IMG/VR virus record: IMGVR_UViG_3300049988_000245
Span: 32,001 to 96,000 of that record
Length of the DNA stretch: 64,000 nucleotides
Source of the DNA: a virus
Taxonomy: Duplodnaviria; Caudoviricetes
Strand: one strand, 5' to 3'
Part shown: piece after piece, positions 181 to 63,953 of the stretch
Numbering within the stretch: position 1 is the first letter of the stretch
Layout of the letters: the number at the start of each line of letters is the position of its first letter
Notes under the pieces: generated by a model
What the model was told of the DNA's origin: nothing
Databases searched by the model: none
The model's input: only the letters and a program-made list of their open reading frames with translations
Made by a program: the position numbers and the translations under genes

Positions 181-798
181 ATGGCCCTTGTTAATACTGA
201 CATCGACATTGACTTCGCGAATCGTGATCATGCCCTGAAGGGGCTGCATCATATTCCAGCCACCGTTCGGGATTCGATCGGACGCCACACCCGGCACGTC
301 TCGGGGGTCTATTTCCAGCCCGTCCCGATCGACCCCCTCAGCGGGCTGTCCGCGTACGCCTATGACGAGGCGGCCGAACGCGGCTATTTTAAAATCGATT
401 TCCTGAACAACTCGATCTATCAGGGCATTCGGGACGAAGCCCATCTGGACGAACTCCTCGCGAAGGAAGTCGAGTGGGAGTTATTTGATGAATCAACCTT
501 CGTGGAGGAGCTTCCTCATATTGGGAATCACTTCGGCACAGTCCAATCGATCAAGCCGCGCTCGATCGAAGACCTCGCGGTGATTCTCGCCCTGATGCGT
601 CCGGGCAAGCGCTACCTGATTGGTCAGCCCCGGTCGAAGGTGGACGAGGAAATCTGGAAGCCTGACCCGAAGGGGTACCACTTCAAGCGCGCCCACGCCA
701 TCGCATACTCAGTATCCATTATCGTGAAACTCCATTTGCTTATTGAACAGCTTGGTTCTTCGATCGATGCGGAAAAAGCCAACGATGCCCTCTTCTAG
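181..798 (+). CDS. DNA polymerase III alpha-subunit (DnaE)-like short protein
   Basis: Motifs DIDID, RHxSGxY, GYFKIDFL, RPGK and FKRAHAIAY recall the DnaE palm/fingers region; ends in TAG. Confidence 0.7.
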   Translation: MALVNTDIDIDFANRDHALKGLHHIPATVRDSIGRHTRHVSGVYFQPVPIDPLSGLSAYAYDEAAERGYFKIDFLNNSIYQGIRDEAHLDELLAKEVEWELFDESTFVEELPHIGNHFGTVQSIKPRSIEDLAVILALMRPGKRYLIGQPRSKVDEEIWKPDPKGYHFKRAHAIAYSVSIIVKLHLLIEQLGSSIDAEKANDALF

Positions 799-1165
799 CC
801 TACACGCGGGCTATCCCCGGTGGGGGGACGATCTCTACTTGGTCGGCGACGTGTATGATTCTGAAACGAGCAAGCAGATTTGGACCTGCCTGATCATGCG
901 AATCTATGATCACGAGAAAGACCTCGATCGTGGCCGATTCGAAAATTTCAAGCGCGAAACTCGGGAGTTCACCGTCTCGTTCAAGCTGACCAATCAGTCC
1001 CAACCCTGGGCCACCCTCATCGGACCGATGATCAACTGGATCGCCGAGATCGGCAATCAGCCATGGAGCTTGGACATCGACATCCTACACGTGGGCGAGG
1101 GGCGGTTCGACTTCAGCTTCGACGAACTCGATGTGGCGACGATGTTCAAGCTGGTGTTCGCATGA
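785..1165 (+). CDS. small-domain paralog family member (AxxFK-W family)
   Basis: MINWIAEIG...FDFSFDELDVATMFKLVFA; likely ATG at 785 within track ORF 743-1165. Confidence 0.6.
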   Translation: MPSSSLHAGYPRWGDDLYLVGDVYDSETSKQIWTCLIMRIYDHEKDLDRGRFENFKRETREFTVSFKLTNQSQPWATLIGPMINWIAEIGNQPWSLDIDILHVGEGRFDFSFDELDVATMFKLVFA

Positions 1166-1404
1166 ACTACCAGTTCGACGTCGAGAGCGCGTGGTTTCCC
1201 GTCCACGAGAGCCCGAAGCCGCGCAAGGATTGGTTCCGGAAGCGCTACGAGGTGCTGGCCGAATGGCTGGACGAAAACACCCCGGAGTGGAAGTTCAGGG
1301 CGGAACTAGACAATTACGAGTACGACTCGATCTACTCGTTCTATCGAATCGTCGTTCAGTTCGATGAAGAGGATGACGCATTCCTCTATAAGATGCGCTG
1401 GTGA
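1162..1404 (+). CDS. small-domain paralog family member
   Basis: ATGA overlap with the previous gene; LAEWLDENTP...QFDEEDDAFLYKMRW. Confidence 0.7.
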   Translation: MNYQFDVESAWFPVHESPKPRKDWFRKRYEVLAEWLDENTPEWKFRAELDNYEYDSIYSFYRIVVQFDEEDDAFLYKMRW

Positions 1405-1439
1405 TTCTATAGGGTGTTTATAAGGCTTTAAATAGCTTT

Positions 1440-1884
1440 ATGACCTATCAGAACCCTCCCCGTGGCGGTATCGTCCAGCCAAACTCAAAGCATAGCTATC
1501 GTGTCAAGTTTCGCGGTGGCTTCATCGATACCTCGGAATCCTACCTTGATTTCATGCAAAACATGATCTCGGTAGACCTAGACCTTGTCGCGAAGCGCAT
1601 CACCCTGGTGCCGGGACGACATTCTGGCGCTCGCCTCACAGCATATCGCAAAAATGCTGAAGCTGTCTGAATCCGATATCTGCATCGAGCATCTGTCGAA
1701 CTGTGCCGACGTGGTCTCGGTGAAGTCGTTCTCTCACTGCGAGGCGGTCTCGCACACGTACAAGCTCGATTATGCCGAGGCGGGTGCTGCCACACACACG
1801 CTGGTGTTCTCCTATTACGACTTTCGCACCTATCTGGCGCGCAAGCCCATCGATCCGGTTGAAGAGTTCGATCCGGTCATTTAG
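1440..1884 (+). pseudogene. tail-tube (gp19)-like protein split by a frameshift near 1605-1612
   Basis: Frame A gives QPNSKHSYRVKF...ITLV; frame B continues CRDD...ICIEHL...YKLDY...LVFSYYD. The joined length is about 148 aa. Confidence 0.4.
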
Positions 1885-2144
1885 CACCAGCGCATCTTGA
1901 AATCGAACGCGTCGATTTCTTCGCGGAACATGATCTTTGGCGCCTCATGGTGCCAGAGCTTCTTTCGCTTCATCCGGTCCTCACACCACTGGACGACCTC
2001 AGAGAACTCTTTGGGCAACATACCTCTAGGTCCGATGAACCGGTACGGGTAATGACGATCCAAAGGAGACCCACCGATCCACCGACCGGTCTGGCGGTCA
2101 TAATAGTTATAGCTCCCTCGTTTCATCTCGATGAATTTTAGCAT
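1881..2144 (-). CDS. small-domain paralog family member
   Basis: MLKFIEMK...VVQWCEDRM...IMFREEIDAFDFKMRWC. Confidence 0.7.
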   Translation of the reverse strand: MLKFIEMKRGSYNYYDRQTGRWIGGSPLDRHYPYRFIGPRGMLPKEFSEVVQWCEDRMKRKKLWHHEAPKIMFREEIDAFDFKMRWC

Positions 2145-2145
2145 C

Positions 2146-2589
2146 TCAGTACCACTGCATCTTGAACCACATGGCTTCGTTCGGGTCCTCAAACCACAGG
2201 ATCGCTTCGGACAGTTGATGATCCGAAAACGGCAGCATCGTCCATTGCGAGACGAGATTCGACTTACACCATTCCCGTACGTCCTTACGCAGGGAATGCC
2301 GCTTCGCCAAACCATCCAAGATGGACCGCGCTGATCCGTAGAGTTCTCGCCGTCCATCCGCCTCCAGATTGAGGCGCGCCCCTCCGGCGTACCGAATCTC
2401 ATGATCCTCGTGAAACGCAGCGAGGCGAGCAGCATAATCCTGGCTCGCAAGAATGCGCCGTTGGTGTTCTTCCGCTTCCCGTTCGATCCACTGCTGGGTT
2501 TCATACCGCGCCGCCTTGACCCCGGCAATGACGAACGTGATTAGCATTCCCATACACAGCAGGAAAACAATGAATCCTGCCACGTTCAT
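2146..2589 (-). CDS. paralog family member with N-terminal transmembrane segment
   Basis: Hydrophobic N-terminus; VREWCKSNL...WFEDPNEAMWFKMQWY. Confidence 0.65.
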   Translation of the reverse strand: MNVAGFIVFLLCMGMLITFVIAGVKAARYETQQWIEREAEEHQRRILASQDYAARLAAFHEDHEIRYAGGARLNLEADGRRELYGSARSILDGLAKRHSLRKDVREWCKSNLVSQWTMLPFSDHQLSEAILWFEDPNEAMWFKMQWY

Positions 2590-5028: not shown

Positions 5029-5310
5029 ATGTCGATCGAACGCGCTATCCGCTACGCCACCTCGCGCATGGACGCCGGGCGCGTCGCTCGTGATTATGGC
5101 GAGTTCTCCATGTGGCGCAGCCGAATGAAGTGGCTTCGCGAGAAAGTCCGCCTCTACAAGTCCGCAGCCGCTGAGATTGCTCGGGACGAACTCCACATCC
5201 TCGTTGAGGAGAATGCTCGCCGGTCTCCCGACCTTCACCCGAAAATCCTCGCCTACCGGATCAGGTCGTCCGCTGCGGCCGAGGAAATGCTTTTGAGACT
5301 CGGCGGATGA
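5029..5310 (+). CDS. hypothetical protein
   Basis: AGGAG RBS directly downstream of the promoter; overlaps the next ATG. Confidence 0.55.
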   Translation: MSIERAIRYATSRMDAGRVARDYGEFSMWRSRMKWLREKVRLYKSAAAEIARDELHILVEENARRSPDLHPKILAYRIRSSAAAEEMLLRLGG

Positions 5311-5609
5311 AGTTTCGCCCGACCAGCCCGACCATGTTCATGCTGGACCTACCATTCGTCGGACCGAACGAGTGGGAATCCAAACTGATCCGGAAGAACG
5401 ATACCCTCAAGGCGGTATTCGACGCTGGCTGGTGGTGGTGCGTCCGTCAGCATGGCGAGCCGAAGTCGATTGGAGTACGCGATTCCGACGATGACTGGAT
5501 TTGGTCGTTCTTCGGGTTCTATCCCCTCCGGCGCGAAGGAACGCTTCGTTCAGGCATCTACTTCAAGGACCCGAATGCGGCGTTCCACTTTCGGCTGGCC
5601 TGCTGTTAA
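5307..5609 (+). CDS. small-domain paralog family member
   Basis: GWWWCVRQHG...IYFKDPNAAFHFRLACC. Confidence 0.65.
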   Translation: MKFRPTSPTMFMLDLPFVGPNEWESKLIRKNDTLKAVFDAGWWWCVRQHGEPKSIGVRDSDDDWIWSFFGFYPLRREGTLRSGIYFKDPNAAFHFRLACC

Positions 5610-7144: not shown

Positions 7145-7789
7145 ATGTTATATTCTGTTTATAAGATCAAGAACACCCTGAACAATAAGGTATACATTGG
7201 AATCACAAGACGGCCAATGAAGATTCGGTGGAAGTGCCACGTCGGCGATGCCCGCCGGGGATCGAAATTTCATTTCCATCGTGCTATTAACAAGTACGGA
7301 TCGGATTTTTTTCAAGTCGAGATTCTTCTGTCTGGATTGACCAGCACTGAAGCTGGCGAAGCTGAAATACGTTTGATTCGAGAGCATGACTCTTACCGCA
7401 ATGGATACAACGAAACACAGGGCGGCGACATCGTTGAATGGTTCGAGAAGGCAACCCCCGAGGTTCGATCGGCCATAATTGAGCGCCGACGCAACGGGTT
7501 TCTTCGATATCTAGCTGCACGGTCTGAAGAAGAGATTCAAGCTCATCGAGATCGCACCGCCGAACAGTGGAGGAATCAGGACCCCATAGACCGAAATGCC
7601 ATGTCGAAGAAAATGGCATCTCGAAAGGCAAAGCGGTATCGTGTGACATCACCAGAAGGTCTCGTCACTGATGTACTGAATCTCAAGGCGTTTTGTCTGG
7701 AGATGAATCTTAATCAGAGTCATATGACTGGAGTCGCAAAGGGGCGTCTTCGATCATATCGTGGCTGGAAGGCTGAGTATCTTGATTGA
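7145..7789 (+). CDS. GIY-YIG homing endonuclease (Seg-like)
   Basis: SVYKIKNTLNNKVYIGIT, EAE, NGYNETQGG; visibly AT-richer than the flanks. Confidence 0.85.
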   Translation: MLYSVYKIKNTLNNKVYIGITRRPMKIRWKCHVGDARRGSKFHFHRAINKYGSDFFQVEILLSGLTSTEAGEAEIRLIREHDSYRNGYNETQGGDIVEWFEKATPEVRSAIIERRRNGFLRYLAARSEEEIQAHRDRTAEQWRNQDPIDRNAMSKKMASRKAKRYRVTSPEGLVTDVLNLKAFCLEMNLNQSHMTGVAKGRLRSYRGWKAEYLD

Positions 7790-17679: not shown

Positions 17680-17703
17680 CTTCGCAAATATTTGAGGTCA
17701 TTA

Positions 17704-20700
17704 ATGAGAATCACCGGAGGAATCAAGCCGTTCAGCCAGCAGAAGGTGCGGCTTGGGCAAACGTCGGGTGTTAAAATTGATTGGGACAACCCAACGGGAA
17801 CGCTTGGATCGGTCAACGCCGGAGATGCTTTCAACTTCAATTTTTCTGCCCGCTCATCCGACAACAACGTTGTCAGGTTCTACCTAAAGTCTGGCTCTCT
17901 GCCGGATGGTATGACGCTGTCTGAAAACGGGACGCTGTCGGGGACATCAAACTCTCCGGGCATGTATGCGTTCGTCATCAAGGCGGTTGCAGGTCTCTTC
18001 TCTGTCGAGCGAACCTTCTCAGTCCTCACGAAGGCTATCACGGTCGCTTGGACCTCTCCAGCCACGCTCGGTACGATTCCAGCTTCTATTTCCACCCTGA
18101 CGACCCTGTCCGCAACGGCATCGGATGGCGGCGCGGTCGATTACCAGTTGGTTTCAGGAAGCCCGCCCTCGGGAATGGAGTTTGTCACTTCTGGTGCGGT
18201 CCTTGGCAAGCCCAGCACGGGAGGCACGGCGGCTTTCACCGTTCGAGCCACTCGAAAGGCCAACATCTTCACCGACCGTACGTTCACGCTTGCGGTTGCG
18301 GCACCAATGATCACGTGGACCACGGGTTCGCTTCCGATGACCACCGGAGGAAACGTTTACGATCAAACCGTAGTCGCTACTTCCAACCAAACAAACGCGG
18401 TCCTATCGTACTCAGTCGTTTATGGATCGCTGCCCGCTGGACTTAGCCTTAACTCGGCAACAGGTCGAATCACGGGAGCAGCGTCGAACGTCGGTGGCTC
18501 CTCGGTATTCCGAATTCGTGCGAACGACGGGTATACGTATCTGGACAAAGAATTCACCATTACGGTGAATGAAGACATCATCTCTTGGAACACCCCGTCA
18601 GGCTCTTTTGCTTCGCTCAATGGCGGACAGACCTTCATGGGTACACTCGCGTCTGTTTCTAACATCACAGGCCGTTTGGTTAATCAGTATCGGGTCGTAT
18701 CCGGCGCACTCCCTGCGGGATTGACCCTCGACCCCGTTTCGGGATCGATCTCGGGAACTGCGCAGAACGTCAACGGCCTGTCATCGTTCATCGTTCGTGC
18801 ATCAGACGGGTTTGGATTCGCGGATCGCTCATTCCAGATCACAGTTCTGGCCGACGTCATTACGTGGCAGACTCCGACCCAGGTTACATTCAACGCTGGG
18901 GATGGCGACACGAGCATTCAGCTTAATGCGACTGCGCTTTCTGGAAGCCCAATCACGTATACGGTCGTCTCGGGCACGGTTCCAACTGGATTCTCGTTCA
19001 ATCCCACGACGGCGATTATCAGGGGATCGTCCAGCACGACAGTAACTTCGGCGATCACCATTCGGGCAAGTAATTCGATTACTTCGTCTGAGCGCACGTT
19101 TACGGTTTCCGTCAACGGGGCGCCGGTCTGGTCAACCGTCTCGGGCTCGATCGGTTCGGTTCTTCCGGGTCAGCAGATCAGCTTCTCGTTGATCGCATCC
19201 GATCCGGACGGCATTCAATCATACACGGTCATCCCAGAGGGGTCGCTTGCCGAAACCGTGTCGATTCGCAAGATGGGTAACACCGGCTACCTAACCGGCA
19301 CATTCCCAACTCCCTCGGATCAGTTCCCGCCCACATGGACGACGGATCGTGCCATTCCCACGGTCAACGAGGGCGTGATTCAGCCCATCTCGCTTGCTGC
19401 GGCGCCTAGCTCGGGACGTACGATCTCTCGTTACCTCACCGTGGGTGGCACGCTGCCCTGGGGTCTGGCGATGGCCGCAAATGGTGTCGTATCTGGCTCG
19501 GCTTTCAACCAGATTGACGAGCCCTTCACGCCACTTGCTCCCGCCCCGTTGTTTGCGACTGCGACCGACCTTGGCACGAAGTCCGAAGGCGATTCAGTTT
19601 CCCTAACGATGAATGCCACCTCGGTCGCCGGTAGTTCGATTTCGAACTACTCGTTCGTATCTGGAACCATGCCATGGGGAATCGTTCTGAACGGCTCTAC
19701 CGGTGTGCTATCGGGTACGATCGGCGACATCGAACCGGTCTCTGAAAATGTTGCAGCCGGTCCGGCACCCCGTTGGATGACATCCAATGCGGTCTCTCTG
19801 GCCGTCTTGAACGAGAACGATCCCGTCTCGGGCGTGAAGTTCGAGGCCCTGTCAAATTCCGCGTCGGGTATCCGTGGGTACGTGCTTCAGTCGGGTGCGC
19901 TCCCCTGGGGACTTACGTTGAGCGCAAACACCGGAGACGTCTCGGGTAACCTCGTGTTCGATCTCATGGACACGCCATTCGTATCTGCGCCCGGTCCGAC
20001 CTTCATCACGGCTTCCGACATGGGCACGGCCAGTGAAGGAACTCCGCTATCCGCAACGATCAAGGCGACACCCGTCACCGGTAATGCCGTGACCTCTTAC
20101 GCCCTAGTCGGCGGAATCCTCCCATGGGGTATCACGGTTAATTTGAACGGCGTGATCTCTGGAACGATCGATAACATCGAACCAATCTCGGACGCCCCTG
20201 CGAATCTTCTGCCTCCGACGTGGATGACCAACGCCTCGCTGCTCTACTCGGGTGACGAGAACTCCACGTTCACCATGAACGTCTCCGCGACCCCGTCGAG
20301 CAATCGTACGGTAGTGTCCTACAACATCGCCAATGGTGCGATTCCGTGGGGCGTAACGCTGAACAATCTTGGTACTCTCTCGGGCACGATCTCGAACATC
20401 GAACCGGTCCGTGATCCCGTTGTGATTCCGGAAGGCCCGATCTGGCAGACCTCGAATGCGACCGTGCTGTTCGCGGGCGACGAAATCATGTCGTTCAACG
20501 CTACCGTAGTCGCGAATTCCGCTACGAATACGGGCATCGCCGCATACACGATCACCAAGGGTGGAGCCCCGTGGGGCGTCTCTCTCAATTCGAAGACCGG
20601 CCAGTTCACCGGAAACGTTACGTTGATCGAGCAGGACGACCCGTTCGTGGTCACGAACACTCCGGTATTCGTAACCCCGGCGGGTAGCCTGGGTACGGTC

Positions 20701-43974: not shown

Positions 43975-43997
43975 AGGGGAATCAGCAGGAGAGATTC

Positions 43998-44264
43998 ATG
44001 GCCGCGCTCAAGATCGAGATCAACCCGGATATGGACTCGGTTCGGCGCCGCGCCGCGAAGTCGAACAACGACTGGCTGGTCTGGCGCAACCGCGACGGCG
44101 CCACCTGCGCGGCCCGCCGGTCGCTTCCCGCGATCAAGCAGGCGATGCTGGACTGCGGCACCGGCCGGAAGTTCACCATGTACTGTGCCCGGTCGGTCAT
44201 GCCGATGCTGATCGACTGGCGCCTCGGTCTGATCCTCCGGAACAACACCCGTCGCGGGTACTGA
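43998..44264 (+). CDS. hypothetical early protein
   Basis: AGGAG RBS after the promoter. Confidence 0.55.
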   Translation: MAALKIEINPDMDSVRRRAAKSNNDWLVWRNRDGATCAARRSLPAIKQAMLDCGTGRKFTMYCARSVMPMLIDWRLGLILRNNTRRGY

Positions 44265-44521
44265 TGAGCGAACGGACCTTCCTTCCGGCTGGGGAATCGT
44301 ACCTCACCAGCGTACTTTATCGGGCTCCCGTGGATATGGGCAGTCTGTCCCCGGATTGTAGTGCGATTATAGACTGGCTCGAAGAGGACGGCTTTGAAGG
44401 ATACTACTTCCTAGATAGTCACTCCTCGTACAATACGATTGGCAAACGCGTCTACGTAGATGTCAGCGTACTATTCAGTAACCCCGCTGCGGCATTCAAT
44501 TTCCGCATGAGATGGACTTGA
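44264..44521 (+). CDS. small-domain paralog family member
   Basis: IIDWLEEDG...VLFSNPAAAFNFRMRWT. Confidence 0.7.
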   Translation: MSERTFLPAGESYLTSVLYRAPVDMGSLSPDCSAIIDWLEEDGFEGYYFLDSHSSYNTIGKRVYVDVSVLFSNPAAAFNFRMRWT

Positions 44522-45306: not shown

Positions 45307-47352
45307 ATGACGATCGAGCGCACCGACCTGATCCCCGGCGTAACCAAGGTTCGTCTGATCGGATACAGCGAATTTCAAAAGTCGCTGCTCACCTTCTGTG
45401 TTGAACCAGCTTCGTTGCGTTTCCGAAACGCGATACCGGCGATCGGTACGGTTGGGGTGGTCGGCGCGTCTTATAATCTGCGGGAAAACTCCATCCCTGT
45501 GCTGTTCGGTGAAGATACCCCGCTGGGCGACAACGAGGTGGACTGCGACCTCAATACGCTGGAAATCATCGAGAACCCGCCCCGGATGGAGCCGTTTCCG
45601 CTCGGTACCAAGGTGAAGCTGGTCAAGGCCGATCCCCGTCATCGGGGCGTGGGTTCGGCCATCCCCACGGTCGGCCTGATCGGCACGATCGATGCGCAGA
45701 CGGCCCCCGCATGGTGCCAGACCGTTCGGTTTAAGGCGACCGATCTCGGCTACGGCTCGCGTGATGATGACGACGATACGATCTGCCTGTACATCCTGCG
45801 CAACTGCCTGGAGCAGTACGTCCCGGTGGATGATGCGCTCCGACAGATCGTCGCCACCCTGAAAGAGGGACCGAAGGAATTCGATCCCGACACGTACCGG
45901 CCCAAGGTCGATCCCGACGCGCTGATCGACGCCCGTGGACATTGGATGAAGACCGAGCCGTTCCTGCGTAGCAGCATGGAGATGTGGTCGGGCAAACACT
46001 TTGACGACAATGTCAGCAGGTCGATGCTGTTCGAGAAAATCGATCTGGAAGAGCATGGCGCGGTCCGGGAGGAAACAAAGCAACTGTTCTTCCTCAGCAG
46101 CGAGTGCTTCGTCTGCCAGAGCAGGTTCGGCTACACCCCCTCGGAGGGTGGCAAGCGCTTCACCGCGTCCACCGAATGCCCGTATCCGGGCGGCATCCCC
46201 GATTACGATGTGCTGCTCGGCGTCCCCTCGGGGCGGATCGTGTTTGCGAACGACCTGCGTGCCCTGGTGGAGATCGAGGAGCCCCGTGGGACCAGCGTGA
46301 ATTCAATGATCGGCCAGCGCCGTAATACGGAGGCACACGCGGCGGCTGGACTGATCATGATCGCCACCGGCAACACCTGTCCGGGTATCTGGCGGCGGCC
46401 CGATGGGACGATCAGTATCGCCAACTTCCGGGGGAATGATCCGCAGGACGATGACGACCACGAGGTCGAGGGCGTGCACACCCCGGTGGAGGAGCGCGGC
46501 GAGGACTTGGGCAGCATCTGCACGGACCTGTGGGACTTCTGCGCGATGGACTACGGGTACTTCGTGAACCGCTGCGCCGCGCTCAACGAGGACCCGAAGG
46601 ATTTCGACATCACGATCGTCGATGTGAAGGCCGGGACCTGGGCGTTCACGGTCCCGAAGAGCACCGGTCGGGACACTGCGACGGAAATCTACTCCACTGG
46701 TCGCTGGACCGATCAGGCGGCGCCGGAGATTCGCCTCCCCGACACAACCCTGTCGGAGACCCTGGCGGAGAGCCAAGCCTGGAAGGGCCTGAAGGATATC
46801 TGGTCGAGCCCGATCTCCTCGAACGGCTACAAGGGCGTCGAATTCGTGCTGATCTGCTTCGGCACCGGCTACGACTGGACCGATGGGCTGCTCCGCACGG
46901 GCACTCGCCGGGAGGACGAGCCGTTCCGGAATCTCACCGACGCCATGCTGGAGCAGCCCCAGGCGGTGCACCCGCTGGACCAGCACGTGCCGGTGTGGCC
47001 GAACTTCGCCTATCCAATGGGGGAAGCCTTCCTCGGTCAGGAGCCGGGCATCTCGCCGATGTTCCCGCTTTCCATGGGCTACGCGAAGGTCTCGAAAATC
47101 CCGCAGAATGTCGATCCGTGGTGGCTCGCGCTCTCGGTCATGTACGTGAAGGCGATGAAGGATCGAACGGACCTATTCATGACCCGCCATGGCTACACGG
47201 CGGAGAAGCAGCAGGCCGGGATGAATCTGATCTATTCGATGCTGCTCGATCTGGTGGAGGTTCGTGGAGGGATCGACTGGATGCGCCCGTACTTCCGGGA
47301 GTGGCTGGCCGTGGATCAGGAACTTCTTCTGAAGAATCCGCCCCATGCGTGA
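45307..47352 (+). CDS. large hypothetical protein with two N-terminal SH3/KOW-like repeats
   Basis: PGVTKVRL...IPAIGTVG and PLGTKVKL...IPTVGLIG duplication. Confidence 0.55.
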   Translation: MTIERTDLIPGVTKVRLIGYSEFQKSLLTFCVEPASLRFRNAIPAIGTVGVVGASYNLRENSIPVLFGEDTPLGDNEVDCDLNTLEIIENPPRMEPFPLGTKVKLVKADPRHRGVGSAIPTVGLIGTIDAQTAPAWCQTVRFKATDLGYGSRDDDDDTICLYILRNCLEQYVPVDDALRQIVATLKEGPKEFDPDTYRPKVDPDALIDARGHWMKTEPFLRSSMEMWSGKHFDDNVSRSMLFEKIDLEEHGAVREETKQLFFLSSECFVCQSRFGYTPSEGGKRFTASTECPYPGGIPDYDVLLGVPSGRIVFANDLRALVEIEEPRGTSVNSMIGQRRNTEAHAAAGLIMIATGNTCPGIWRRPDGTISIANFRGNDPQDDDDHEVEGVHTPVEERGEDLGSICTDLWDFCAMDYGYFVNRCAALNEDPKDFDITIVDVKAGTWAFTVPKSTGRDTATEIYSTGRWTDQAAPEIRLPDTTLSETLAESQAWKGLKDIWSSPISSNGYKGVEFVLICFGTGYDWTDGLLRTGTRREDEPFRNLTDAMLEQPQAVHPLDQHVPVWPNFAYPMGEAFLGQEPGISPMFPLSMGYAKVSKIPQNVDPWWLALSVMYVKAMKDRTDLFMTRHGYTAEKQQAGMNLIYSMLLDLVEVRGGIDWMRPYFREWLAVDQELLLKNPPHA

Positions 47353-47587
47353 GCCTCGATACGACTTCATCCCTCTCAGTCGAGAGGGATACCACTACGA
47401 CCATAAGTTCGTGATTCGGGAAGACGGCGAATTCTTCAGGAGTAAGTACGACCCGATTCCAAGCGAGGTTGTTGCTTGGCTAGAAGAGCACGTCGGTACG
47501 TACGGCTACGACTACACGAATATCGACGGAGATGTTTGGATATCCGGATCGAAGAAAGCGTTCGAATTTCGTATGCGCTGGTGCTGA
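47345..47587 (+). CDS. small-domain paralog family member
   Basis: VVAWLEEHVG...WISGSKKAFEFRMRWC. Confidence 0.7.
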   Translation: MREPRYDFIPLSREGYHYDHKFVIREDGEFFRSKYDPIPSEVVAWLEEHVGTYGYDYTNIDGDVWISGSKKAFEFRMRWC

Positions 47588-47602: not shown

Positions 47603-47851
47603 ATGAGCGAGAACGGAATCGGTATAAGGTCGGACCATTACGTTCGGACCTGGGGCCTTGGCTTTGGTTTCGGTGGCAAGACCGTTCGCTTGACCAACGA
47701 ACAGTTCTGGTTTGCCATGCTGGACGGAAGAATTCGGTACAGCCTGGGCGAGATTGCGCGGCGAACGGTGTGGAATATGACGGTGGAGCAGTACGAGAGC
47801 CAGCGCCATCCCGGCGCAGATGCCGCCTGCATCTCGTTCGACGACGCGTGA
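47603..47851 (+). CDS. hypothetical protein
   Basis: GAGG RBS; coupled to the next gene. Confidence 0.45.
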   Translation: MSENGIGIRSDHYVRTWGLGFGFGGKTVRLTNEQFWFAMLDGRIRYSLGEIARRTVWNMTVEQYESQRHPGADAACISFDDA

Positions 47852-48066
47852 GCGGCTGCAAGTATATCCCGGAGGGGAATGGCTATGGCGTTCGCTTTAT
47901 GCTTCCGGACAGGGATGACTGGAAAGTCGAAGCCCTACGGGAACTCACCAACTGGCTCACCGATGAATTCGGTGAGCCTCATATGATGCGATGGTATCAA
48001 ATGCAGTGGATCATCTATATCCCTGACCCGACCATCGCAATGGCGTTTCGGCTACGTTGGTGCTGA
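47848..48066 (+). CDS. small-domain paralog family member
   Basis: GTG start; LTNWLTDEFG...IYIPDPTIAMAFRLRWC. Confidence 0.65.
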   Translation: MSGCKYIPEGNGYGVRFMLPDRDDWKVEALRELTNWLTDEFGEPHMMRWYQMQWIIYIPDPTIAMAFRLRWC

Positions 48067-48471
48067 CTCGCCGTGGATCGCCCGGAAAGCCTCGCGATCG
48101 ACCGGGAAGATGTTCTCGGTCTCTGAGGTGTCGAACATCTGCTCGTACCGCTCCGGACCGAGAAGCGTCTTGGTCTGTCTCATGAAGCCGGAGAAGTTCG
48201 TTTCGGCCGCGTCGAGGAAACCTTCCGAGGTGAGTTCGCCCCGATCCATTGCCTGACCCAGGCGCTCATGCTCGCCGCGCATCTTGCGTTGGATGGTCAG
48301 GACGTGTTCGAACTCCTCGGGCGTCACCGACACCTTGGTCTGCTCGAACATCGAGTGAAGCTCTTCGCGATCCGTTTGAACGTGACTGTGCATATGCTGC
48401 CCCTGATGAAAGAGGCAGCATATCTGGTTCGTCGGCTTAGATCGATACCTGTCTGCCCAATTCGACGGCAC
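48052..48471 (-). CDS. hypothetical protein
   Basis: ORF downstream of kup; the true start is probably internal. Confidence 0.4.
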   Translation of the reverse strand: MPSNWADRYRSKPTNQICCLFHQGQHMHSHVQTDREELHSMFEQTKVSVTPEEFEHVLTIQRKMRGEHERLGQAMDRGELTSEGFLDAAETNFSGFMRQTKTLLGPERYEQMFDTSETENIFPVDREAFRAIHGESAPT

Positions 48472-50314
48472 GCTCCGTGGGTATCCGGAAGTGCGCCGAG
48501 GCGTCGGCCTGAGCGGTGGACATCCGGACGAAGAGTGCGTCCTGCCACCAGGGCATCTTAGACGCGCTGGAAACCTTCAGGGTGCGCTTGGACAAGAAGA
48601 AGCTCGTCTTCATCACCTCGAACTTCCAGCCCGCCCTACGACACTGCTTGAGCGCCAGGGGAACGTTCGGGACTTCCATGAACCCGAACCGTAGGCGGAC
48701 CCGCAGGAAGCCGTCGTTCAGGGTCTCGATCCGAACGCGGTCTACTTCTTCCACGCGAGGTTCGTCCACCGTGTCTACGGCGAGAATCACGGTGTTCTGG
48801 TGGAGCACCCGGTTGTGCTTCAGGTTATGCAGGAGCGCCGGGGGCACCTCGTCCGGACGAGGCGTAAAGAACACTGCCGTCCCATCGACGCGATTCTTGA
48901 TTGATTTGGCCAGCGTCGGGATATAGTCGAGCAGGTCAAGAGCTTCCTTGCTCTGCTTGGTCGAGAGTAGTTCCGAACCCTTCCGCCACGTGATCATCGC
49001 GACCATCAGGAGAGCGCCGAACAGCACCGGGAGCCAGCCGCCGTCGAACACCTTCAGTGAGTTGGCCGACAGGAACACCATGTCGAGGGCCAGGAACGGC
49101 GTCATCAGCATGACAGCGAGCGGCATCGGGACCCGCCAGACCTTCCAGGCGACGAAGAACGCCAGCAGCGCGGTCATCACCATGGTCCCGGACACCGCGA
49201 TCCCGTATGCGGAGATCAGCGCCTCGGAGGACCGGAACGACAGCACCACCATGACGACTCCGGTGAGCAGCATCCAGTTGATCTGAGGAACGTAGATTTG
49301 CCCCCGCTCGGTCTCCGAGGTCGGTCGAATCACCATTCGGGGGAGCAGCTTCAACTGGATCGCCTGCTGGGTGAGCGAGAACGCCCCGGTGATCGCGGCC
49401 TGCGCGGCGATGATCGTCGCCAGCGTGGCGAGCAGCACCATCGGGATCAGCGCCCATTCCGGAAACATCAGGAAGAACGGATTCTCCGCATGCTCCGGGT
49501 GAGCCATCAGGAATGCGCCCTGGCCCAAATAATTCAGACCCAGACAGGGGAAGATGAAGCCGATCCACGCGACTTGAATCGGAGTCCGGCCGAAGTGACC
49601 CATGTCCGCGTATAGCGCCTCCGCTCCGGTAACTGCGAGGAACACCGAACCGAGCACCAGCATAGAGGCGAGGCCGTGGTGGAGTAGGAAGTCGAGCGCG
49701 TGGAGCGGGTTCAGGGCCGCCAGGATAGCCGTGTTCTCCCAGATGTAGGGAAGACCAACCAGGGCCATCAGACCGAACCACAGGGCCATCACGGGGCCAA
49801 AGAACGTGGCAACTCGCGCCGTACCCCGGCTCTGCACCACGAACAGGCTGATCAGGATGACCAGGGCGAGCGAAACCACGTAGGGTTTGAACGCGGAGGA
49901 GACCAGATTCAGCCCCTCGACCGCTGACAGAACCGAGACCGCCGGAGTCAGCACGGCGTCTCCATAGAACAGGGCGGCGCCGATCATCCCAAGTATCACG
50001 ACGTACTTGGCTCCGCCCATGGCCTTAAACGCCAGTGCGGTGAGTGCAAGAATCCCGCCCTCACGGTCATTGTCCGCCCACATAATGAGGCCGACATATT
50101 TCACCGTGACGGTCAGGAACAACGTCCAGAGGACCAGGGAGACCAGGGAGACGATCAGGTCGGGGGAATGTGCTCCGGCGCCGGAGGCGACCTTCAGGGT
50201 CTCCTTGAGCGCATACAAGGGGGAGGTGCCGATATCCCCATAGACGACACCGGTCGAGCCGAGAGCCAGTGTGAACAGGCCCGCCTTATGCGGGACCGTG
50301 GTGGTGGATGACAT
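48437..50314 (-). CDS. kup: KUP/HAK/KT potassium transporter
   Basis: GVVYGDIGTSPLYA, GEGG-like REGGILAL, GAEALYADMGHF, LLHNLKHN; multiple TM helices. Confidence 0.95.
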   Translation of the reverse strand: MSSTTTVPHKAGLFTLALGSTGVVYGDIGTSPLYALKETLKVASGAGAHSPDLIVSLVSLVLWTLFLTVTVKYVGLIMWADNDREGGILALTALAFKAMGGAKYVVILGMIGAALFYGDAVLTPAVSVLSAVEGLNLVSSAFKPYVVSLALVILISLFVVQSRGTARVATFFGPVMALWFGLMALVGLPYIWENTAILAALNPLHALDFLLHHGLASMLVLGSVFLAVTGAEALYADMGHFGRTPIQVAWIGFIFPCLGLNYLGQGAFLMAHPEHAENPFFLMFPEWALIPMVLLATLATIIAAQAAITGAFSLTQQAIQLKLLPRMVIRPTSETERGQIYVPQINWMLLTGVVMVVLSFRSSEALISAYGIAVSGTMVMTALLAFFVAWKVWRVPMPLAVMLMTPFLALDMVFLSANSLKVFDGGWLPVLFGALLMVAMITWRKGSELLSTKQSKEALDLLDYIPTLAKSIKNRVDGTAVFFTPRPDEVPPALLHNLKHNRVLHQNTVILAVDTVDEPRVEEVDRVRIETLNDGFLRVRLRFGFMEVPNVPLALKQCRRAGWKFEVMKTSFFLSKRTLKVSSASKMPWWQDALFVRMSTAQADASAHFRIPTERAVELGRQVSI

Positions 50315-50378
50315 GTGGGTGATCCATTGGAGGAGGCGACGTTCTACACCTCTCTCATTGGTTCGACCAAATTGAATT

Positions 50379-50987
50379 TCAGGCAGATTCCTCCTCGGGC
50401 GGGGCAATTTTGTACCACCGCATTTTGAACTCCATCGCCTCGTTCGGGTCCTTAATCACCGCGACAACGTTCCGAAGCTGGTTCGACCATCCACCGGTCA
50501 CGACATGCGGACCTCGAATTCGTTCATTCACCCAGACTTCCATCTCCGTGTGTTGGTCCGAGGTCATAGTAGTCTCGATTCTGTAATTCTTGACCAGCGA
50601 CCTGAACCAATCTCGAACCTCTACAAGAGATCGTGGATCAGAGAATGCCAAACGCCATCCGTTAACATTGGACGACATGTCACCTTCGCGTTGCAGTAGA
50701 ACATTTCCATTCACACCATCGACGAATTTTCTGAATTCGGTGTAGTCCCAAAGTTTATTATTGATGTCCAAATCAGTTACTCGAAACTCTTCCCCGAAGG
50801 AGGCTCCGAAATACCACATCCGATAGTCATTGAACGGGTCTGGTAAGCCATGCGAGGGAATCTTCGCCACTCCCTGGAGCGTATTAGCAATTGGCTGAAA
50901 CTCCATGACTCGGGAGTTCATATTGGTGATCTGCGAGTATACCTCTGGGGTGAAGGACACGCGCGGAACCATTATAACGGTACTCAT
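50379..50987 (-). CDS. paralog family member with two tandem domains
   Basis: WRLAFSDPRSLVEVRDW followed by MEVWVNE...VIKDPNEAMEFKMRWY. Confidence 0.6.
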   Translation of the reverse strand: MSTVIMVPRVSFTPEVYSQITNMNSRVMEFQPIANTLQGVAKIPSHGLPDPFNDYRMWYFGASFGEEFRVTDLDINNKLWDYTEFRKFVDGVNGNVLLQREGDMSSNVNGWRLAFSDPRSLVEVRDWFRSLVKNYRIETTMTSDQHTEMEVWVNERIRGPHVVTGGWSNQLRNVVAVIKDPNEAMEFKMRWYKIAPPEEESA

Positions 50988-51017: not shown

Positions 51018-51395
51018 ATGAAGAAGCCGCAGAGACCTCTGGTTCAGAGGTTCTTCCACGACATGTTTACCGGACGTGACAACCATACATTCGATATGGG
51101 TCGTATCCTGTGGTTTCAGTCGATTCAAGCCTTCATCGGCCTGTCCGTGTATGCACTGTACAAGGGCGGCACCTTCGATCCCGTTCTCTGGGGCGCAGGT
51201 CTCGCCGCGCTCATGGCATCTGGTGGCGCCGCCCTCGGGTTGAAGTCTGGCACCGAGCCGGAATTTCGTGAGAAGACCCCGATGGGTGATTTCTCCGGCC
51301 GGATCGATGCAGTTCGAACCGAAGTCACCTCGGTTCGTCAGTCGGCCACCTCCATGGCGGCTTCGAAGCCAGACGAGCCAGACGACGGGGTTTGA
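51018..51395 (+). CDS. putative holin-like membrane protein
   Basis: TAAATA at 51007; DMFTGRDNHTFDMGR followed by two TM segments. Confidence 0.5.
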   Translation: MKKPQRPLVQRFFHDMFTGRDNHTFDMGRILWFQSIQAFIGLSVYALYKGGTFDPVLWGAGLAALMASGGAALGLKSGTEPEFREKTPMGDFSGRIDAVRTEVTSVRQSATSMAASKPDEPDDGV

Positions 51396-52438
51396 TTCGG
51401 CTTCTTTCGTCTCGGACCCGTATTGGTCCCGCGCCGAATCGCCTTTATGTGCATAGGTACGCCACCGGGAAGCTCTTTGTAGGCTTCTCCGCGAATCACC
51501 TTATAAACGGCATCGCCGATACCAAGCTCGCGGGCGATCTGCTTCCCGAACACGTATCGGGTCCGATACATCCGCCGGGCCTGGATGACTTGCTCTTCAG
51601 TCAGTCTGCGACGGAATCCAGACGGTCGAAGTGTTGTTGCTCCCGGAACGTCTGCATAGTACCTTCCCGTAACGATATTGTTGATTGTCGCCGGATCAGT
51701 ACCTCCATAGGCGTCACCAAGCTTCTTAAGTGAAATACCAGACGTATACTGAAGCCGAATGAACAGGACTTGCTCGTCCGTAAACTTGCGCGCCTGATTG
51801 CGTTTTACTAGGGCGCCCGGCAGATGTGCGTACAAGCGTCCGGCCAGGATCGCATTAGTAAGATTTCGGGAGAGACCAAACTTGGCGGCGATCTCCGCTT
51901 GAGTGATGTCCTTTTTTGCGTAAAGGCTACGCATCCGCAGGACGTCCTTTTCCGGAATACTTCCGAGGGGCTTCTTTACCGCCCCGTGGATGTCCTTGTA
52001 GGAACGACCGGAGACGATCGCGCTGATCACAGTAGTTGGAGCCTCGAAGTATGCGGCTAACGCAGACTGTGCCCAATTCTTCTCACGGTAAAGATACCGC
52101 ATAAAAACGACTTGATATTTCTTAAACGTCCGGGGATTCTTCTTTATTGCTCCCGGAAGGTATGCGTATGACCGTCCTGAGATGCAATTGGCAACGCGCT
52201 TTTCGGCCTCGCCCATATAGGCAGCGATCTGACTATGCGTCCATCCGGATCGGGCGAGTTCCCGCATGTGCAAGACTTCGCTTGGCGTGAAAGCCTCGCG
52301 ACCAATCCGCACTTGTCCTTCGAACTCGAACTCCAGATACGCACTGATCGCTGCGTCAGACCACTTTTCGTCGGTCAAACGGCGAATCGTAAGAACCTGC
52401 TGGTCAGTGTAATGGATTGTGGAAGGAGGAGTCGGCAT
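51338..52438 (-). CDS. tandem HTH-array DNA-binding protein
   Basis: Five full repeats and one partial repeat of xTxxQVxxxRxxY...lAxxfG...I..G..Y..LPG. Confidence 0.7.
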   Translation of the reverse strand: MPTPPSTIHYTDQQVLTIRRLTDEKWSDAAISAYLEFEFEGQVRIGREAFTPSEVLHMRELARSGWTHSQIAAYMGEAEKRVANCISGRSYAYLPGAIKKNPRTFKKYQVVFMRYLYREKNWAQSALAAYFEAPTTVISAIVSGRSYKDIHGAVKKPLGSIPEKDVLRMRSLYAKKDITQAEIAAKFGLSRNLTNAILAGRLYAHLPGALVKRNQARKFTDEQVLFIRLQYTSGISLKKLGDAYGGTDPATINNIVTGRYYADVPGATTLRPSGFRRRLTEEQVIQARRMYRTRYVFGKQIARELGIGDAVYKVIRGEAYKELPGGVPMHIKAIRRGTNTGPRRKKPNQTPSSGSSGFEAAMEVAD

Positions 52439-53970: not shown

Positions 53971-54861
53971 TTATCGGATTCCCGTATACCCGCCGTCGAA
54001 CACCTTGGCCATAACCCGATCGGTTAAAGATTCCACGAAATCGTCCATCATGGAATCAGCGCCGAATAGACGCTTCAGAGAGAAGCCACGCTTCACCTCG
54101 GTGGTGACGCGGAACAGCGGTATGTTCGAGGCAAACGCATGCAGGATCGCGGAATTGCTGTCGCCGAGTTCGTCAACCAGGGTGCCGACATGGTCCTTGG
54201 CCATGAAGTAGTCGCCGTCCATGGTGGCTTCGGTCACCTGGGGGCGAAACCCCTGGACGTGCTGCTTGAACGCCGTGTGTAGCCCCTGGAGCTTGTCGTT
54301 GACCGCATCCTTGTCCTCGTCCGTTGGTGTCTTGAACGGCACCACGGTGCGTTTCATTTTACCGGCGGTGAAGAGTTCGAAGTGCACTCCGATTCGCTTC
54401 AGCGCGTCCTCGAAGATTGGAATTTGACCAACCACGCCGATCGAGCCGACGAACGCCATCGGGTTTGCCACCAGCTTGGTGGCGACGCAGGCCATCATGT
54501 AGCCGCCGGATGCCGCGATCTCATCCACGAACACCGTGACAGGAATCTTCGCGTTGATCAGCCGCTCCACCTGGGCCGCCGCATTGGCGTACGCGGTTAC
54601 GGGGCCGCCGGGGGAATACACCGACAAGTACACCTGGGTGCCCTTGGCACCAGCGTTGACGATCACCGCGTTCACGTCGTGTTCGAGCTTCCGGAAGGCG
54701 TCTTCCTTCGGAATGCGGGTGTCGAACGTGATCAGGAAGATCGGGCCGCTGCTGGTGTTCTTGTTAGCTTCCATAAACACCTTTTGCGTATTCTTGGTGC
54801 CGATCTGTTTGGCCAGCACCTTGGTCTCGTTCTCGATCTTGGTCTTGTACTTCTTCTTCAT
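53971..54861 (-). CDS. sohB: S49 serine peptidase (SohB/SppA-like)
   Basis: SPGG, DEIAASGGYMMAC, GSIGV, TAGKMKRT. Confidence 0.85.
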   Translation of the reverse strand: MKKKYKTKIENETKVLAKQIGTKNTQKVFMEANKNTSSGPIFLITFDTRIPKEDAFRKLEHDVNAVIVNAGAKGTQVYLSVYSPGGPVTAYANAAAQVERLINAKIPVTVFVDEIAASGGYMMACVATKLVANPMAFVGSIGVVGQIPIFEDALKRIGVHFELFTAGKMKRTVVPFKTPTDEDKDAVNDKLQGLHTAFKQHVQGFRPQVTEATMDGDYFMAKDHVGTLVDELGDSNSAILHAFASNIPLFRVTTEVKRGFSLKRLFGADSMMDDFVESLTDRVMAKVFDGGYTGIR

Positions 54862-54883
54862 AGAAAATCTCCGGGTACACATG

Positions 54884-55596: not shown

Positions 55597-55854
55597 TTAA
55601 TGCTCACCCACCCAGCGCATCTTGAATTCGAATGTTTGTTCTGCATTGGGCATAGTAAACGTTCTGTGGTTGGAAACGTACCACCGAGTATCGTCATCGA
55701 TCGATGGCTCGCCAAACCTCTCCTGACACCACTCAGTGATCTCTTGAGTAAGTTTGTCGGCCTCGTTCACGTTCTGAAGACCGATTGGATCGACGAGGAA
55801 TAACCACCAACCGCTCAATGGGTCGAAACCACCCTCCTCGACGATGACTTTCAT
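55597..55854 (-). CDS. small-domain paralog family member
   Basis: ITEWCQERFG...FTMPNAEQTFEFKMRW. Confidence 0.7.
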   Translation of the reverse strand: MKVIVEEGGFDPLSGWWLFLVDPIGLQNVNEADKLTQEITEWCQERFGEPSIDDDTRWYVSNHRTFTMPNAEQTFEFKMRWVGEH

Positions 55855-56610: not shown

Positions 56611-56703
56611 GAGTATAGAATCGATCTGGTTAACGCTCACCAAACCTCATCCGCAGGCCGATGCCGCGAAGCGTGATGAGTGGGGAAGCCATACGTGTCT
56701 CCG

Positions 56704-56967
56704 CTATCCGAAACAAAGTTTGAACGCGACCGCGTCTACCTCACGATAAAACAAGAGATCGACGGAATCTGAGAACTTAGGAGTGTACTTGTATAAAATG
56801 TTGTTTTCGTCCAGCCAAGCCTTAGCTTGGTCGCTGAGGCACGTCTGGACGTGATGACCGAGGACGCTTTTGGCGTTCCGAAGCGCACGATGATCCGAGG
56901 CGCCGTTTATGAACACCTTGACCAGACGAACACTCCCGTCCGGATTAAGAATCGGTGTGAGAATCAT
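56704..56967 (-). CDS. small-domain paralog family member
   Basis: AKAWLDENNI...LLFYREVDAVAFKLCFG. Confidence 0.65.
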   Translation of the reverse strand: MILTPILNPDGSVRLVKVFINGASDHRALRNAKSVLGHHVQTCLSDQAKAWLDENNILYKYTPKFSDSVDLLFYREVDAVAFKLCFG

Positions 56968-57239
56968 GATTCGGGGTCCGCAGGATAAACCTGCCAGTGC
57001 GTGCCGATGACGTAGTCCTTGTAGGGATTCGCCGTAACAGTCTTGAAGCCACCGAGGTAGTCGTAATTCTCCGACTCGTAGTCAACGGTAAGTTCGGATT
57101 CCCACACGCAGACGTGCCAGGATTTCTCCGGACTATGGTTGTTCAGGCTCTCCCATCCGGCGGTCCCGTAGACGAGGAGCTTGCGACCATCCCGTGGAGT
57201 GTTCTGGTCGATCGGGTAGGTGACGCCGGGGACAAACAT
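56964..57239 (-). CDS. hypothetical protein
   Basis: AAGGA RBS; coupled. Confidence 0.5.
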   Translation of the reverse strand: MFVPGVTYPIDQNTPRDGRKLLVYGTAGWESLNNHSPEKSWHVCVWESELTVDYESENYDYLGGFKTVTANPYKDYVIGTHWQVYPADPES

Positions 57240-62707: not shown

Positions 62708-63393
62708 CGGTCAGCGTAACCCTCAAACGGGAAGACGAGATTCGAATCGTTTCCCTACACGTCGAGGCTGAGTGGCCTCTGCGGAAAATCGCAGAGACTT
62801 ACAGCACCAGCAATCATCGCGTTAAACGCATCTTGGAGCGCCACGGCGCTCCAATTCGAACCGAAGGCTGGAAGTTGGAGCCACTTTCCGAAGAACGAAA
62901 GAAACAGATTAGTAGTCAACAAAAAGGGCTTCCTTGCTGGATGCGAGGAAGAAAAATGACCGATGAACATCTTCGAAAGATGATGGCAAGTAAGTTGAAA
63001 ACAAAACGGTCTTTATCAGAATATAAAGACCTCGAACGATTGAAAATCCTTACGGGTATAACGTCCAGGCATCGAAAGATGCTGAGCTTTACCGATGAAT
63101 CGCGATTCGCGTTCATTGACAAGTTCTATTTCGATGAAGCATTCAACGCAATATATGATGCTTGGTTAGTAAACGACAAAAATAAGTGGTGGTACCCTTC
63201 GATTGATCATAAAATCCCGAAATCGTTGGGAGGATGTTTCTCCCTCGACAATCTTCAATTCTTAACTTGGTTTGAGAATCGGGCAAAGGCTGATATCCCC
63301 CAGGATCAATGGGAGGAGCTTAAGAGATTCACGAACACAAAGTCGAACCTTTTCATAGAATCCATTCTTGAATCGCGGCGACGATCTAATTGA
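62704..63393 (+). CDS. HNH endonuclease with HTH/NUMOD3-like N-terminus
   Basis: PSIDHKIPKSLGG...NLQFLTWFENRAK. Confidence 0.75.
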   Translation: MTVSVTLKREDEIRIVSLHVEAEWPLRKIAETYSTSNHRVKRILERHGAPIRTEGWKLEPLSEERKKQISSQQKGLPCWMRGRKMTDEHLRKMMASKLKTKRSLSEYKDLERLKILTGITSRHRKMLSFTDESRFAFIDKFYFDEAFNAIYDAWLVNDKNKWWYPSIDHKIPKSLGGCFSLDNLQFLTWFENRAKADIPQDQWEELKRFTNTKSNLFIESILESRRRSN

Positions 63394-63763
63394 CGTAATC
63401 TCCGTCAGCGATACCTGACACTTCCATACGGGCGCGCCATCCTTCATCGAGCGGGCGCGCATCCGTATGAAGTCGGGCTTCCAGTGCATCGTTGTCCGAA
63501 TACACATGCAATACGATTGTATCATAAACCGTATACTTGGTATACCAGCTATCCGGTTTCGTATCGACAACGAATCGAATGAATTCCCAATGATATGGAA
63601 TCTCGCGGTGATCGAGATAGTTCACAAGGCGGTCTGATTCCTCCGCGTGATACCAGTAGGTAGCTCGGAGAGATCGAATCAGACATCCGTCATGGATGTG
63701 GCCGGGCGGGAACGGGTTGAAGTCGGTTCCAAATTCGTGCCAGAAAATCATGAAGCTACGCAC
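63386..63763 (-). CDS. hypothetical protein (divergent paralog-family member)
   Basis: LVNYLDHRE...HVYSDNDALEARLH. Confidence 0.45.
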   Translation of the reverse strand: MRSFMIFWHEFGTDFNPFPPGHIHDGCLIRSLRATYWYHAEESDRLVNYLDHREIPYHWEFIRFVVDTKPDSWYTKYTVYDTIVLHVYSDNDALEARLHTDARPLDEGWRARMEVSGIADGDYVN

Positions 63764-63953
63764 GGCAGGTCGCTCCCCAGGTGAGTCGAAATTCGAAAGC
63801 CTGCTCAGGCGTTACGCTGGCGATCAATTCCTTGCGGCTTTCCCAATTCGGAACAGGCTCGGTCAGAACGATTCCCCGCGCTACACACCAATCCACGATG
63901 GGTTGGCCCAGGCGTTCAAAATCCTCGCGTGGCTGAACGAAAAAGTCGATCAC
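63756..63953 (-). CDS. small-domain paralog family member
   Basis: IVDWCVARG...SVTPEQAFEFRLTWG. Confidence 0.65.
   Translation of the reverse strand: MIDFFVQPREDFERLGQPIVDWCVARGIVLTEPVPNWESRKELIASVTPEQAFEFRLTWGATCRA

Follow-up and report, generated by a model that had tools for sequence, protein, structure and literature searches.

The gene family in the window and the genome

The stretch of DNA analyzed here (the window) is 64,000 nucleotides long and covers bases 32,001 to 96,000 of one virus record, IMGVR_UViG_3300049988_000245, of 265,895 bp with 56% GC. When the window was read from its letters alone, 20 dispersed genes were listed as paralogs of an uncharacterized small domain with a Trp-containing helix and a conserved C-terminal motif. 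We found that all 20 belong to one family, since each carries the motif in an open frame and each is recovered by an iterated profile hidden Markov model (HMM). Their translations share a Trp helix, W[CL]xE..G, and the end D/N-x-x-x-A-[FM]-x-F-[KR]-[ML]-R-W. A genome-wide count with the HMM, which this sequence-only reading had called for, gives 93 to 99 copies, and the 20 of the window are one fifth of them.

Gene starts were assigned from Shine-Dalgarno pairing with stop-start overlaps, a codon usage score, and orthologs or independent gene calls. All 20 places listed from the sequence alone are real, but several starts were moved (to 2144 rather than 2528, and to 24413, 24631, 29899, 43546, 50972, and 55854), and the member at 63756 extends past the window to 64040. 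The members are given below; L025 is a 60.8-kb contig from another sample that is collinear with the window from 45 to 69 kb.

785 to 1165, plus strand: weak member (E=2.7e-3), starting at ATG 785 or TTG 839, end ...ATMFKLVFA; its stop overlaps the ATG of the 1162 member (ATGA)
1162 to 1404, plus strand: 80 amino acids (aa), end ...DAFLYKMRW with nothing after the W
1881 to 2144, minus strand: 87 aa, end ...DAFDFKMRWC; its ATG lies 1 nt past the stop of the 2146 member, and the frame extension up to 2528 is without coding potential
2146 to 2589, minus strand: 147 aa, predicted N-terminal transmembrane helix, end ...EAMWFKMQWY
5307 to 5609, plus strand: 100 aa, degenerate end ...AAFHFRLACC; a sigma-70-like promoter whose end is at 5003 lies 304 nt upstream
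24159 to 24413, minus strand: 84 aa, scoring best of all members in the window (E=1e-19), protein P0003; TGATG overlap with the upstream member
24413 to 24631, minus strand: 72 aa, end ...TAFACKMRWG; its ATG overlaps the stop of the upstream open reading frame (ORF)
29052 to 29321, minus strand: 89 aa, with a 10-residue tail past RW
29324 to 29899, minus strand: about 191 aa, long N-terminal extension, end ...DAIMYTLRWK; the codons AGG TGG precede the next ATG
30103 to 30540, minus strand: divergent member, 145 aa, end ...TAMQFKITWCTGR, E=3.3e-4
42500 to 42760, plus strand: 86 aa, consensus type, ATGA overlap with the upstream ORF; second structure model
42795 to 43094, plus strand: divergent member, 99 aa, end ...LAMAFKLKFC, E=1.4e-2
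43546 to 43950, plus strand: divergent member, about 134 aa, end ...HAFMFKLRWFG, E=8.6e-3; the start first proposed at 43486 is without coding potential
44264 to 44521, plus strand: 85 aa, second gene after a sigma-70-like promoter ending at 43974
47345 to 47587, plus strand: 80 aa, first structure model; L025 ortholog 75% identical
47848 to 48066, plus strand: 72 aa, GTG start in a GTGA overlap; L025 ortholog 86% identical
50379 to 50972, minus strand: 197 aa, lineage-specific N-terminal extension and 13-residue tail, adjoining a Kup transporter gene; only 3 homologs
55597 to 55854, minus strand: 85 aa, ATGA overlap with an upstream 63-aa gene; L025 ortholog 70% identical
56704 to 56967, minus strand: divergent member, 87 aa, end ...DAVAFKLCFG, E=1.7e-2; in a stretch of about 360 nt missing from L025
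63756 to 64000, minus strand: cut by the window end, gene to 64040 and 94 aa; first in an array of 8 that continues past the window

The profile was seeded with the 49 ORFs of the genome that contain F[KR][MLI]RW and iterated on all stop-to-stop ORFs in six frames of the whole genome. It converged at 92 to 93 ORFs under a cutoff of E<1e-3 and at 99 when E<0.05 was allowed. The 99 domain matches lie in 99 distinct places, 49 on the plus and 50 on the minus strand, so the use of both strands seen in the window holds genome-wide. No match was found with the same profile in shuffled ORFs of the genome, and reversed ORFs gave a single weak one (E=0.0086). Within the window the profile returns exactly the 20 genes first listed and adds none; 16 of them score at E<=3.3e-4, and the four weakest correspond to ORFs 728-1165 (2.7e-3), 43480-43950 (8.6e-3), 42525-43094 (1.4e-2), and 56704-57081 (1.7e-2). 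The sequence-only reading would have been given up had the members failed to align into one HMM or fold; the profile recovers 20 of 20, and two structure models agree.

Of the window, about 6.4 kb consist of family genes; across the genome these add up to 28.4 kb (10.7%) and are grouped in 43 arrays of one to nine genes. With 93 to 99 copies, partly in tandem, in 265,895 bp, this is a lineage-specific expansion of a small protein in a phage of more than 200 kb. Most members are single-domain proteins, with a median length of 86 aa. With a median pI of 5.9, and a pI over 8 in only 22 of 99, they are mildly acidic. They are also highly aromatic (15% F+W+Y, 4.3% W), and an N-terminal hydrophobic helix is found in only four of the 99, one of them the protein at 2146-2589. 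The tail after the motif is 0 or 1 residue long in 77 of the 99, which agrees with the early remark that the motif lies almost always at the extreme C terminus.

Predicted fold, junctions, and promoters

AlphaFold2 models were made for two of the 99 members from different alignments, the one at 47345-47584 with a mean confidence (pLDDT) of 82.5 and the one at 42500-42757 with a pLDDT of 78.5. Both show one compact domain with the same beta-beta-alpha-beta-beta-alpha order, and the model pLDDT is above 90 from the first helix through the last residue. The Trp helix (WCxE) is helix 1 of the models, and the terminal AFxFKMRW is helix 2, the last helix of the compact domain (pLDDT 92 to 96). From the copies of this genome and 142 outside sequences, we derived a family signature: [YF]P[HY]xF in strand 1, E[VI]xxW[CL]xE[QR]FG in helix 1 and its cap, RW in strand 2, [FI]xF in strand 3, and [RS]D[EP][DN]DAF[EA]F[KR][ML]RW in the cap and helix 2. 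Judged from the sequence pattern, A, F, F, M, and W in helix 2 are spaced as on a buried face; the preceding acidic residues would suit a helix cap, and E, K, and R would suit i to i+4 pairs.

According to the models, a single compact domain of about 60 residues makes up essentially the whole of each protein. Since the conserved W, F, A, and M mark two core helices and the hairpin, the motif is best read as the skeleton of a minimal domain and not as a detachable docking peptide. The proposal of a conserved docking motif joined to variable specificity modules is thus not borne out: the motif is an integral last helix with a hydrophobic-face pattern, and a median length of 86 aa leaves most members no space for a separate module. 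A homodimer prediction for the 47345 member scored 0.03, which counts neither for nor against a dimer.

No domain library that we searched has a match to the family, in agreement with its description as uncharacterized. Pfam-A gave only 13 scattered single matches to 93 members, none better than E=0.012; in PHROGs v4, none of the 93 matched at 1e-3; and NCBIfam 20 had no match. The best hit of the family profile among PDB sequences had E=0.43, and Foldseek found nothing at E<=0.001 among PDB and Swiss-Prot models. A match to a known domain of established function, the other outcome that would have overturned the early proposal, was therefore found in none of these searches. Foldseek against AFDB clusters and BFVD returned only weak matches (best E 0.019 to 0.027) to unnamed small proteins, those in BFVD mostly from "uncultured Caudovirales phage", and the ESM Atlas returned clusters of viral "hypothetical protein"; BFVD and Atlas matches are almost all viral. 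These unnamed proteins are probably relatives of the family. The Atlas also gave weak shape matches to SUI1 (TM score 0.52) and to a DnaJ-linked bacterial cluster (TM score 0.62). We found no paper that describes the family.

The same beta-beta-alpha-beta-beta-alpha order is found in the fold of DCoH (pterin-4a-carbinolamine dehydratase; PDB 1uso, 2ebb, and 3jst; acRAF 4low). The superposition scores fall under the level that the comparison tool counts as meaningful, no family member matches Pfam Pterin_4a at E<=0.1, and the family signature has no conserved His, unlike the catalytic histidines of DCoH. "DCoH-like fold" is the best label for the predicted structure, without a sequence link. 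The N-terminal extensions of five longer proteins have no match in Pfam. A helicase from the protein library, P0133 (1,822 aa, ResIII/DEAD type), was considered as a family fusion and rejected: only an EEWCKETFEG stretch matches (profile positions 24 to 54). The protein has about seven C-terminal repeats of about 93 aa, every one with EIEEWCKETFEGxP, which are without the hairpin and the terminal helix. The repeats and helix 1 of the family may look alike through convergence or because both keep an old helix motif.

Members follow one another in translationally coupled strings, as had been noticed from the sequence. In the window there are eight ATGA or TGATG overlaps (at 1162, 24413, 24631, 42500, 44264, 47848, 55854, and 56967) and two spacers of 1 to 2 nt between coupled members (at 2144 and 29321). 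Many members end in ...AAG ATG AGG TGG xxx TGA TG, in which the TGA gives its A to the next ATG. GAGGTG and AGGTG are exact complements of the 3' end of 16S rRNA, and they are placed 5 nt ahead of the downstream ATG. The Arg codon of M-R-W is AGG or AGA in 20 of 34 members (59%) whose stop overlaps a downstream ATG or GTG, versus 2 of 23 uncoupled members, 8.5% genome-wide, and 10% elsewhere in the same genes. Longer-tailed members are without the stop-start overlap, and the same junction and Arg-codon trend are seen in a metagenome contig of 59% GC. The codons of M-R-W (ATG AGG TGG, giving GAGGTG) thus double as the Shine-Dalgarno site of the next gene. The constant spacing between Trp and stop is, at least in part, a property of the DNA, belonging to a cassette that brings along the ribosome-binding site of the following gene. 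Conservation of the Arg and Trp is just as high with a CGC codon and in uncoupled genes, so the constraint on the protein does not depend on the ribosome-binding role.

Sigma-70-type sites (TTGACN-N16-18-TAYWWT) occur 16 times in the genome versus about one expected from a Markov shuffle, an approximately 16-fold enrichment. Seven lie in the window; for five of these a same-strand family gene follows 0.3 to 1.8 kb downstream, separated from the site by one to a few other small genes. The remark that the strings often sit behind early promoters therefore holds in part: several strings are in operons headed by sigma-70-type sites, but most arrays have no strict match. Several of the sites share the leader ...TATATTAGGGGAATCAGCA...GGAG..ATG. 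Strong promoters (TTGACG/A, 17 nt, TATATT) were noted at 43934-43991 and 32294-32351 of the window and at 28475, 29919, and 182161 of the genome, and a common leader follows them, AGGGGAATCAGCA..GGAG..ATG; the conserved leader may be a regulatory element. Pseudomonas phage PA5oct, a relative, relies on the RNA polymerase of its host, and most of its early genes are small and uncharacterized (PMC7318152). By analogy, the family operons are probably transcribed by the host polymerase, early in infection.

Spread, age, and selection

The DnaB-type helicase of this genome is nearest to those of Agrobacterium phage Atu_ph07 (53%), Sinorhizobium phage Phosso (53%), and Pseudomonas phage PA5oct (47%), which assigns the phage to the jumbo phages of "group 2.2", relatives of T4 (Iyer et al. 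2021, PMC7824862). DNA near-identical to it is present in metagenome runs from leaf and silage. The family profile matches 47 proteins of Phosso, all annotated "hypothetical", four of Atu_ph07, and three of PA5oct, including gp274 and gp275, in which the motif is clear. No match to the profile was found in T4, RaK2, or 121Q. PA5oct gp274 and gp275 carry no virion mass spectrometry note, and they are not mentioned in the text of the PA5oct paper (PMC7318152).

Among 1.84 billion proteins, the profile matches 4,409 clusters (50% identity representatives) at E<=1e-3, nearly all of them of 60 to 125 aa. The metagenome contig of 59% GC has 20 family matches in 20 kb, in strings with 1-nt overlaps, and another contig, of 37% GC, has eight in 12.8 kb. 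Tblastn with one member against 50,697 phage records gave no match, the sequences being too short and diverged, and megablast with one window gene against phages gave none either. A scan with a strict-motif subset found nine IMG/VR loci and one bacterial locus, counts that reflect the strict motif and not the family.

The bacterial locus was the only one confirmed in the genomes of 185,579 species with the strict motif. It is a lower-GC island of Methylobacterium carpenticola (G001:C1:215950-281130) with five to six family members next to an rve transposase, a VapE-like primase, and heavy-metal efflux genes. In that bacterial family, 121 genomes were sampled, and two match the profile at 1e-5. 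On these genome sequences, the family is rare in bacteria, and its presence in the island means that it is not confined to jumbo phages. Methylobacterium is a leaf bacterium, which hints at the host range of this phage group.

The copies of this genome are old. The median identity to the best paralog is 36%, and no recent copies were found. The best paralog is a neighboring member in 13 cases versus 2 expected by chance, which is a faint trace of tandem duplication. In the stretch syntenic with L025, 11 of the 12 family genes have one-to-one orthologs with 54 to 86% identity. The exception is the 56704 member: window positions 56612-56972 (about 360 nt) are missing from L025, where about 200 nt of unrelated sequence stands instead. 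This is a cassette gained or lost between close phages. In three near-identical contigs, one family member is frame disrupted (split) in two and whole in the third (L016 8056-8453 versus L017 7800-8453), which looks like ongoing decay of single copies.

For 10 ortholog pairs, the ratio of nonsynonymous to synonymous substitution rates (dN/dS) is 0.01 to 0.27 with a median of 0.17, versus a median of 0.14 for 21 neighboring genes; these values are rough, as dS is about 1 or above. The dN is about twice that of the neighbors (0.165 versus 0.086). Orthologs are 89% identical at family-core columns and 68 to 71% identical at family-variable columns and in the N-terminal parts. Purifying selection thus holds each copy to its own constraints, also at positions where paralogs differ, which argues for many different functions and counts against both junk DNA and wholesale diversifying selection. 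The latter had been proposed for the repertoire and does not agree with a median of 0.17.

Several other genes of the window were noted. The Kup-type K+ uptake transporter at 48437-50407 (minus strand) is full length (656 aa; PF02705, E=2.4e-172, plus K_trans_C) and 93% identical in L025, an unusual auxiliary gene for a phage. A ParB-like protein at 41322-42329 (plus strand) heads the operon with the 42500 member. The 1,379-aa protein at 17692-21831 (plus strand) has eight He_PIG Ig-like repeats (E=3e-79) and is, by these repeats, probably a fiber or head decoration protein. A GIY-YIG homing-endonuclease-like gene lies at 7145-7789 (plus strand), directly upstream of replication genes. On the minus strand there are also a protein with sigma-70 region 4 and helix-turn-helix matches (51338-52438) and an S49 (SppA/ClpP-like) peptidase (53971-54882).

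Possible function and known parallels

We favor, at a probability of roughly 45%, the reading that the family is an early, paralog-specific panel of binders of host or defense proteins, built on one ancient single-domain scaffold. The members would be made early in infection from operons read by the host RNA polymerase at sigma-70-type promoters. One rigid scaffold would carry the diversified panel, and each paralog would recognize its own host or defense protein through its variable N terminus, loops, and sheet surface. The structural and genomic side of this reading has good support; we infer its functional part from several properties: size, acidity, an aromatic core, no export signals, the absence from the PA5oct virion list, copy-specific constraint, promoter type, and the presence in other mobile elements together suggest small cytoplasmic protein binders. 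Taken with the copy-specific purifying selection, the size of the expansion argues for some hundred separate roles on a single scaffold, with the phage-host interface as their most plausible place. An anti-defense repertoire, one of the ideas of the sequence-only reading, or a host-binding one is plausible.

Several points weigh against such a panel. No member has a known partner, target, or phenotype, and the fold models are predictions. The link from promoter to timing is made by analogy only, most arrays have no strict promoter match, and no RNA data were found for this phage. Whole-gene dN/dS is blind to positive selection at a few sites. The scaffold interpretation of the motif is also compatible with the conserved exposed K/R and E forming a common functional surface.

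An alternative, the hub model of the sequence-only reading, is that the C-terminal helix docks all paralogs on one phage or host hub while the variable parts recruit different cargo, which we consider unlikely. In its favor, the FKMRW end is 70 to 90% conserved and stands at the extreme C terminus in 77 of the 99 members, and the periodicity of the signature predicts K and R on the exposed side of the helix. However, the helix is an integral, high-confidence part of the predicted fold, and most members are too short for a second module. The fixed position of the end is at least partly explained by the Shine-Dalgarno site and the stop-start junction in the DNA, and other phages with three to four copies, as well as the bacterial island, have no obvious common hub gene.

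No better chance is given to a large set of small nucleic-acid-binding regulators of transcription or translation, the role also proposed for the approximately 35 zinc-ribbon copies of Bacillus phage G. A weak fold likeness to RRM, KH, ACT, and SUI1-like alpha/beta domains and to DCoH, a transcriptional coactivator, would fit it, as would the conserved K and R in the last helix. A median pI of 5.9, with 22 of 99 members above pI 8, and 15% aromatic residues suggest a protein binder rather than a nucleic acid binder.

It is equally improbable, in our estimate, that the family is an immunity or antitoxin-like repertoire, in which each copy neutralizes a different toxin, either an abortive infection effector or one from a competing element. 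Arrays of small, diverged alpha/beta proteins are similar to the immunity gene arrays of polymorphic toxin loci, and the members in the Methylobacterium mobile island lie beside a transposase and a VapE-like primase. Yet no toxin genes are paired with members, no Pfam Imm or antitoxin family matches, and known immunity arrays usually mix many families and do not consist of one.

Least of all do we expect selfish or neutral cassettes that spread by duplication with their own ribosome-binding site and junction and whose proteins are useless to the phage: the self-contained cassette design, the 56612-56972 cassette missing in the related phage L025, and the 13 neighboring best paralogs versus 2 by chance would suit them, but best-paralog identity has a median of 36% with no recent copies, 11 of 12 syntenic members are kept as one-to-one orthologs, dN/dS is about 0.17, and paralog-specific positions are conserved.

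The panel of early binders has a bolder form, which we put forward as speculative. A widespread unnamed phage scaffold would be a genome-encoded "binder library" of about 100 paralogs per genome, each tuned to a different host defense or housekeeping protein. If this were true, the family would be a large untapped source of anti-defense proteins and the main reason why this phage lineage reached jumbo size, and the cassette ending in the next ribosome-binding site would be a mechanism for growth by unit duplication.

About one gene in four of this phage, together with thousands of metagenome clusters, belongs to a domain that no library names. A tenth of such genomes is therefore left without a label by annotation pipelines. 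That the last codons are used twice is a clean case of a nucleotide-level constraint that resembles protein-level conservation of a C terminus. Phosso (47 matches) and PA5oct (gp274 and gp275) are cultured, which opens the question to bench testing.

Jumbo phages in which a small domain has undergone lineage-specific expansion are already known. Bacillus phage G has about 35 zinc-ribbon copies, called unprecedented (Iyer et al. 2021, PMC7824862), and some jumbo phages have arrays of more than 30 similar genes (review PMC13282480). Those expansions are alike in that one small domain is multiplied in one large genome, in tandem strings, with a suggested role at the phage-host interface. In contrast to phage G, the present family is an alpha/beta domain without a zinc ribbon, and its copy number is about three times higher (93 to 99). 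Its members are about 36% identical to their best paralogs, whereas the copies in known jumbo phage arrays are "highly similar", and unlike the known expansions it is common to several phage lineages of 37 to 59% GC.

A second parallel is with early host-takeover clusters, such as the T4 early genes and the PA5oct terminal-repeat genes gp34 to gp105 (PMC7318152), which are also strings of small unannotated genes with host-type promoters and whose products were likewise not seen in the virion. Such clusters combine small genes of unrelated kinds, whereas here one family makes up about a quarter of all genes, in 43 places, with the timing of expression taken by promoter analogy. New in the present case are the domain itself, the record copy number, the wide spread, and the distinctive cassette junction.

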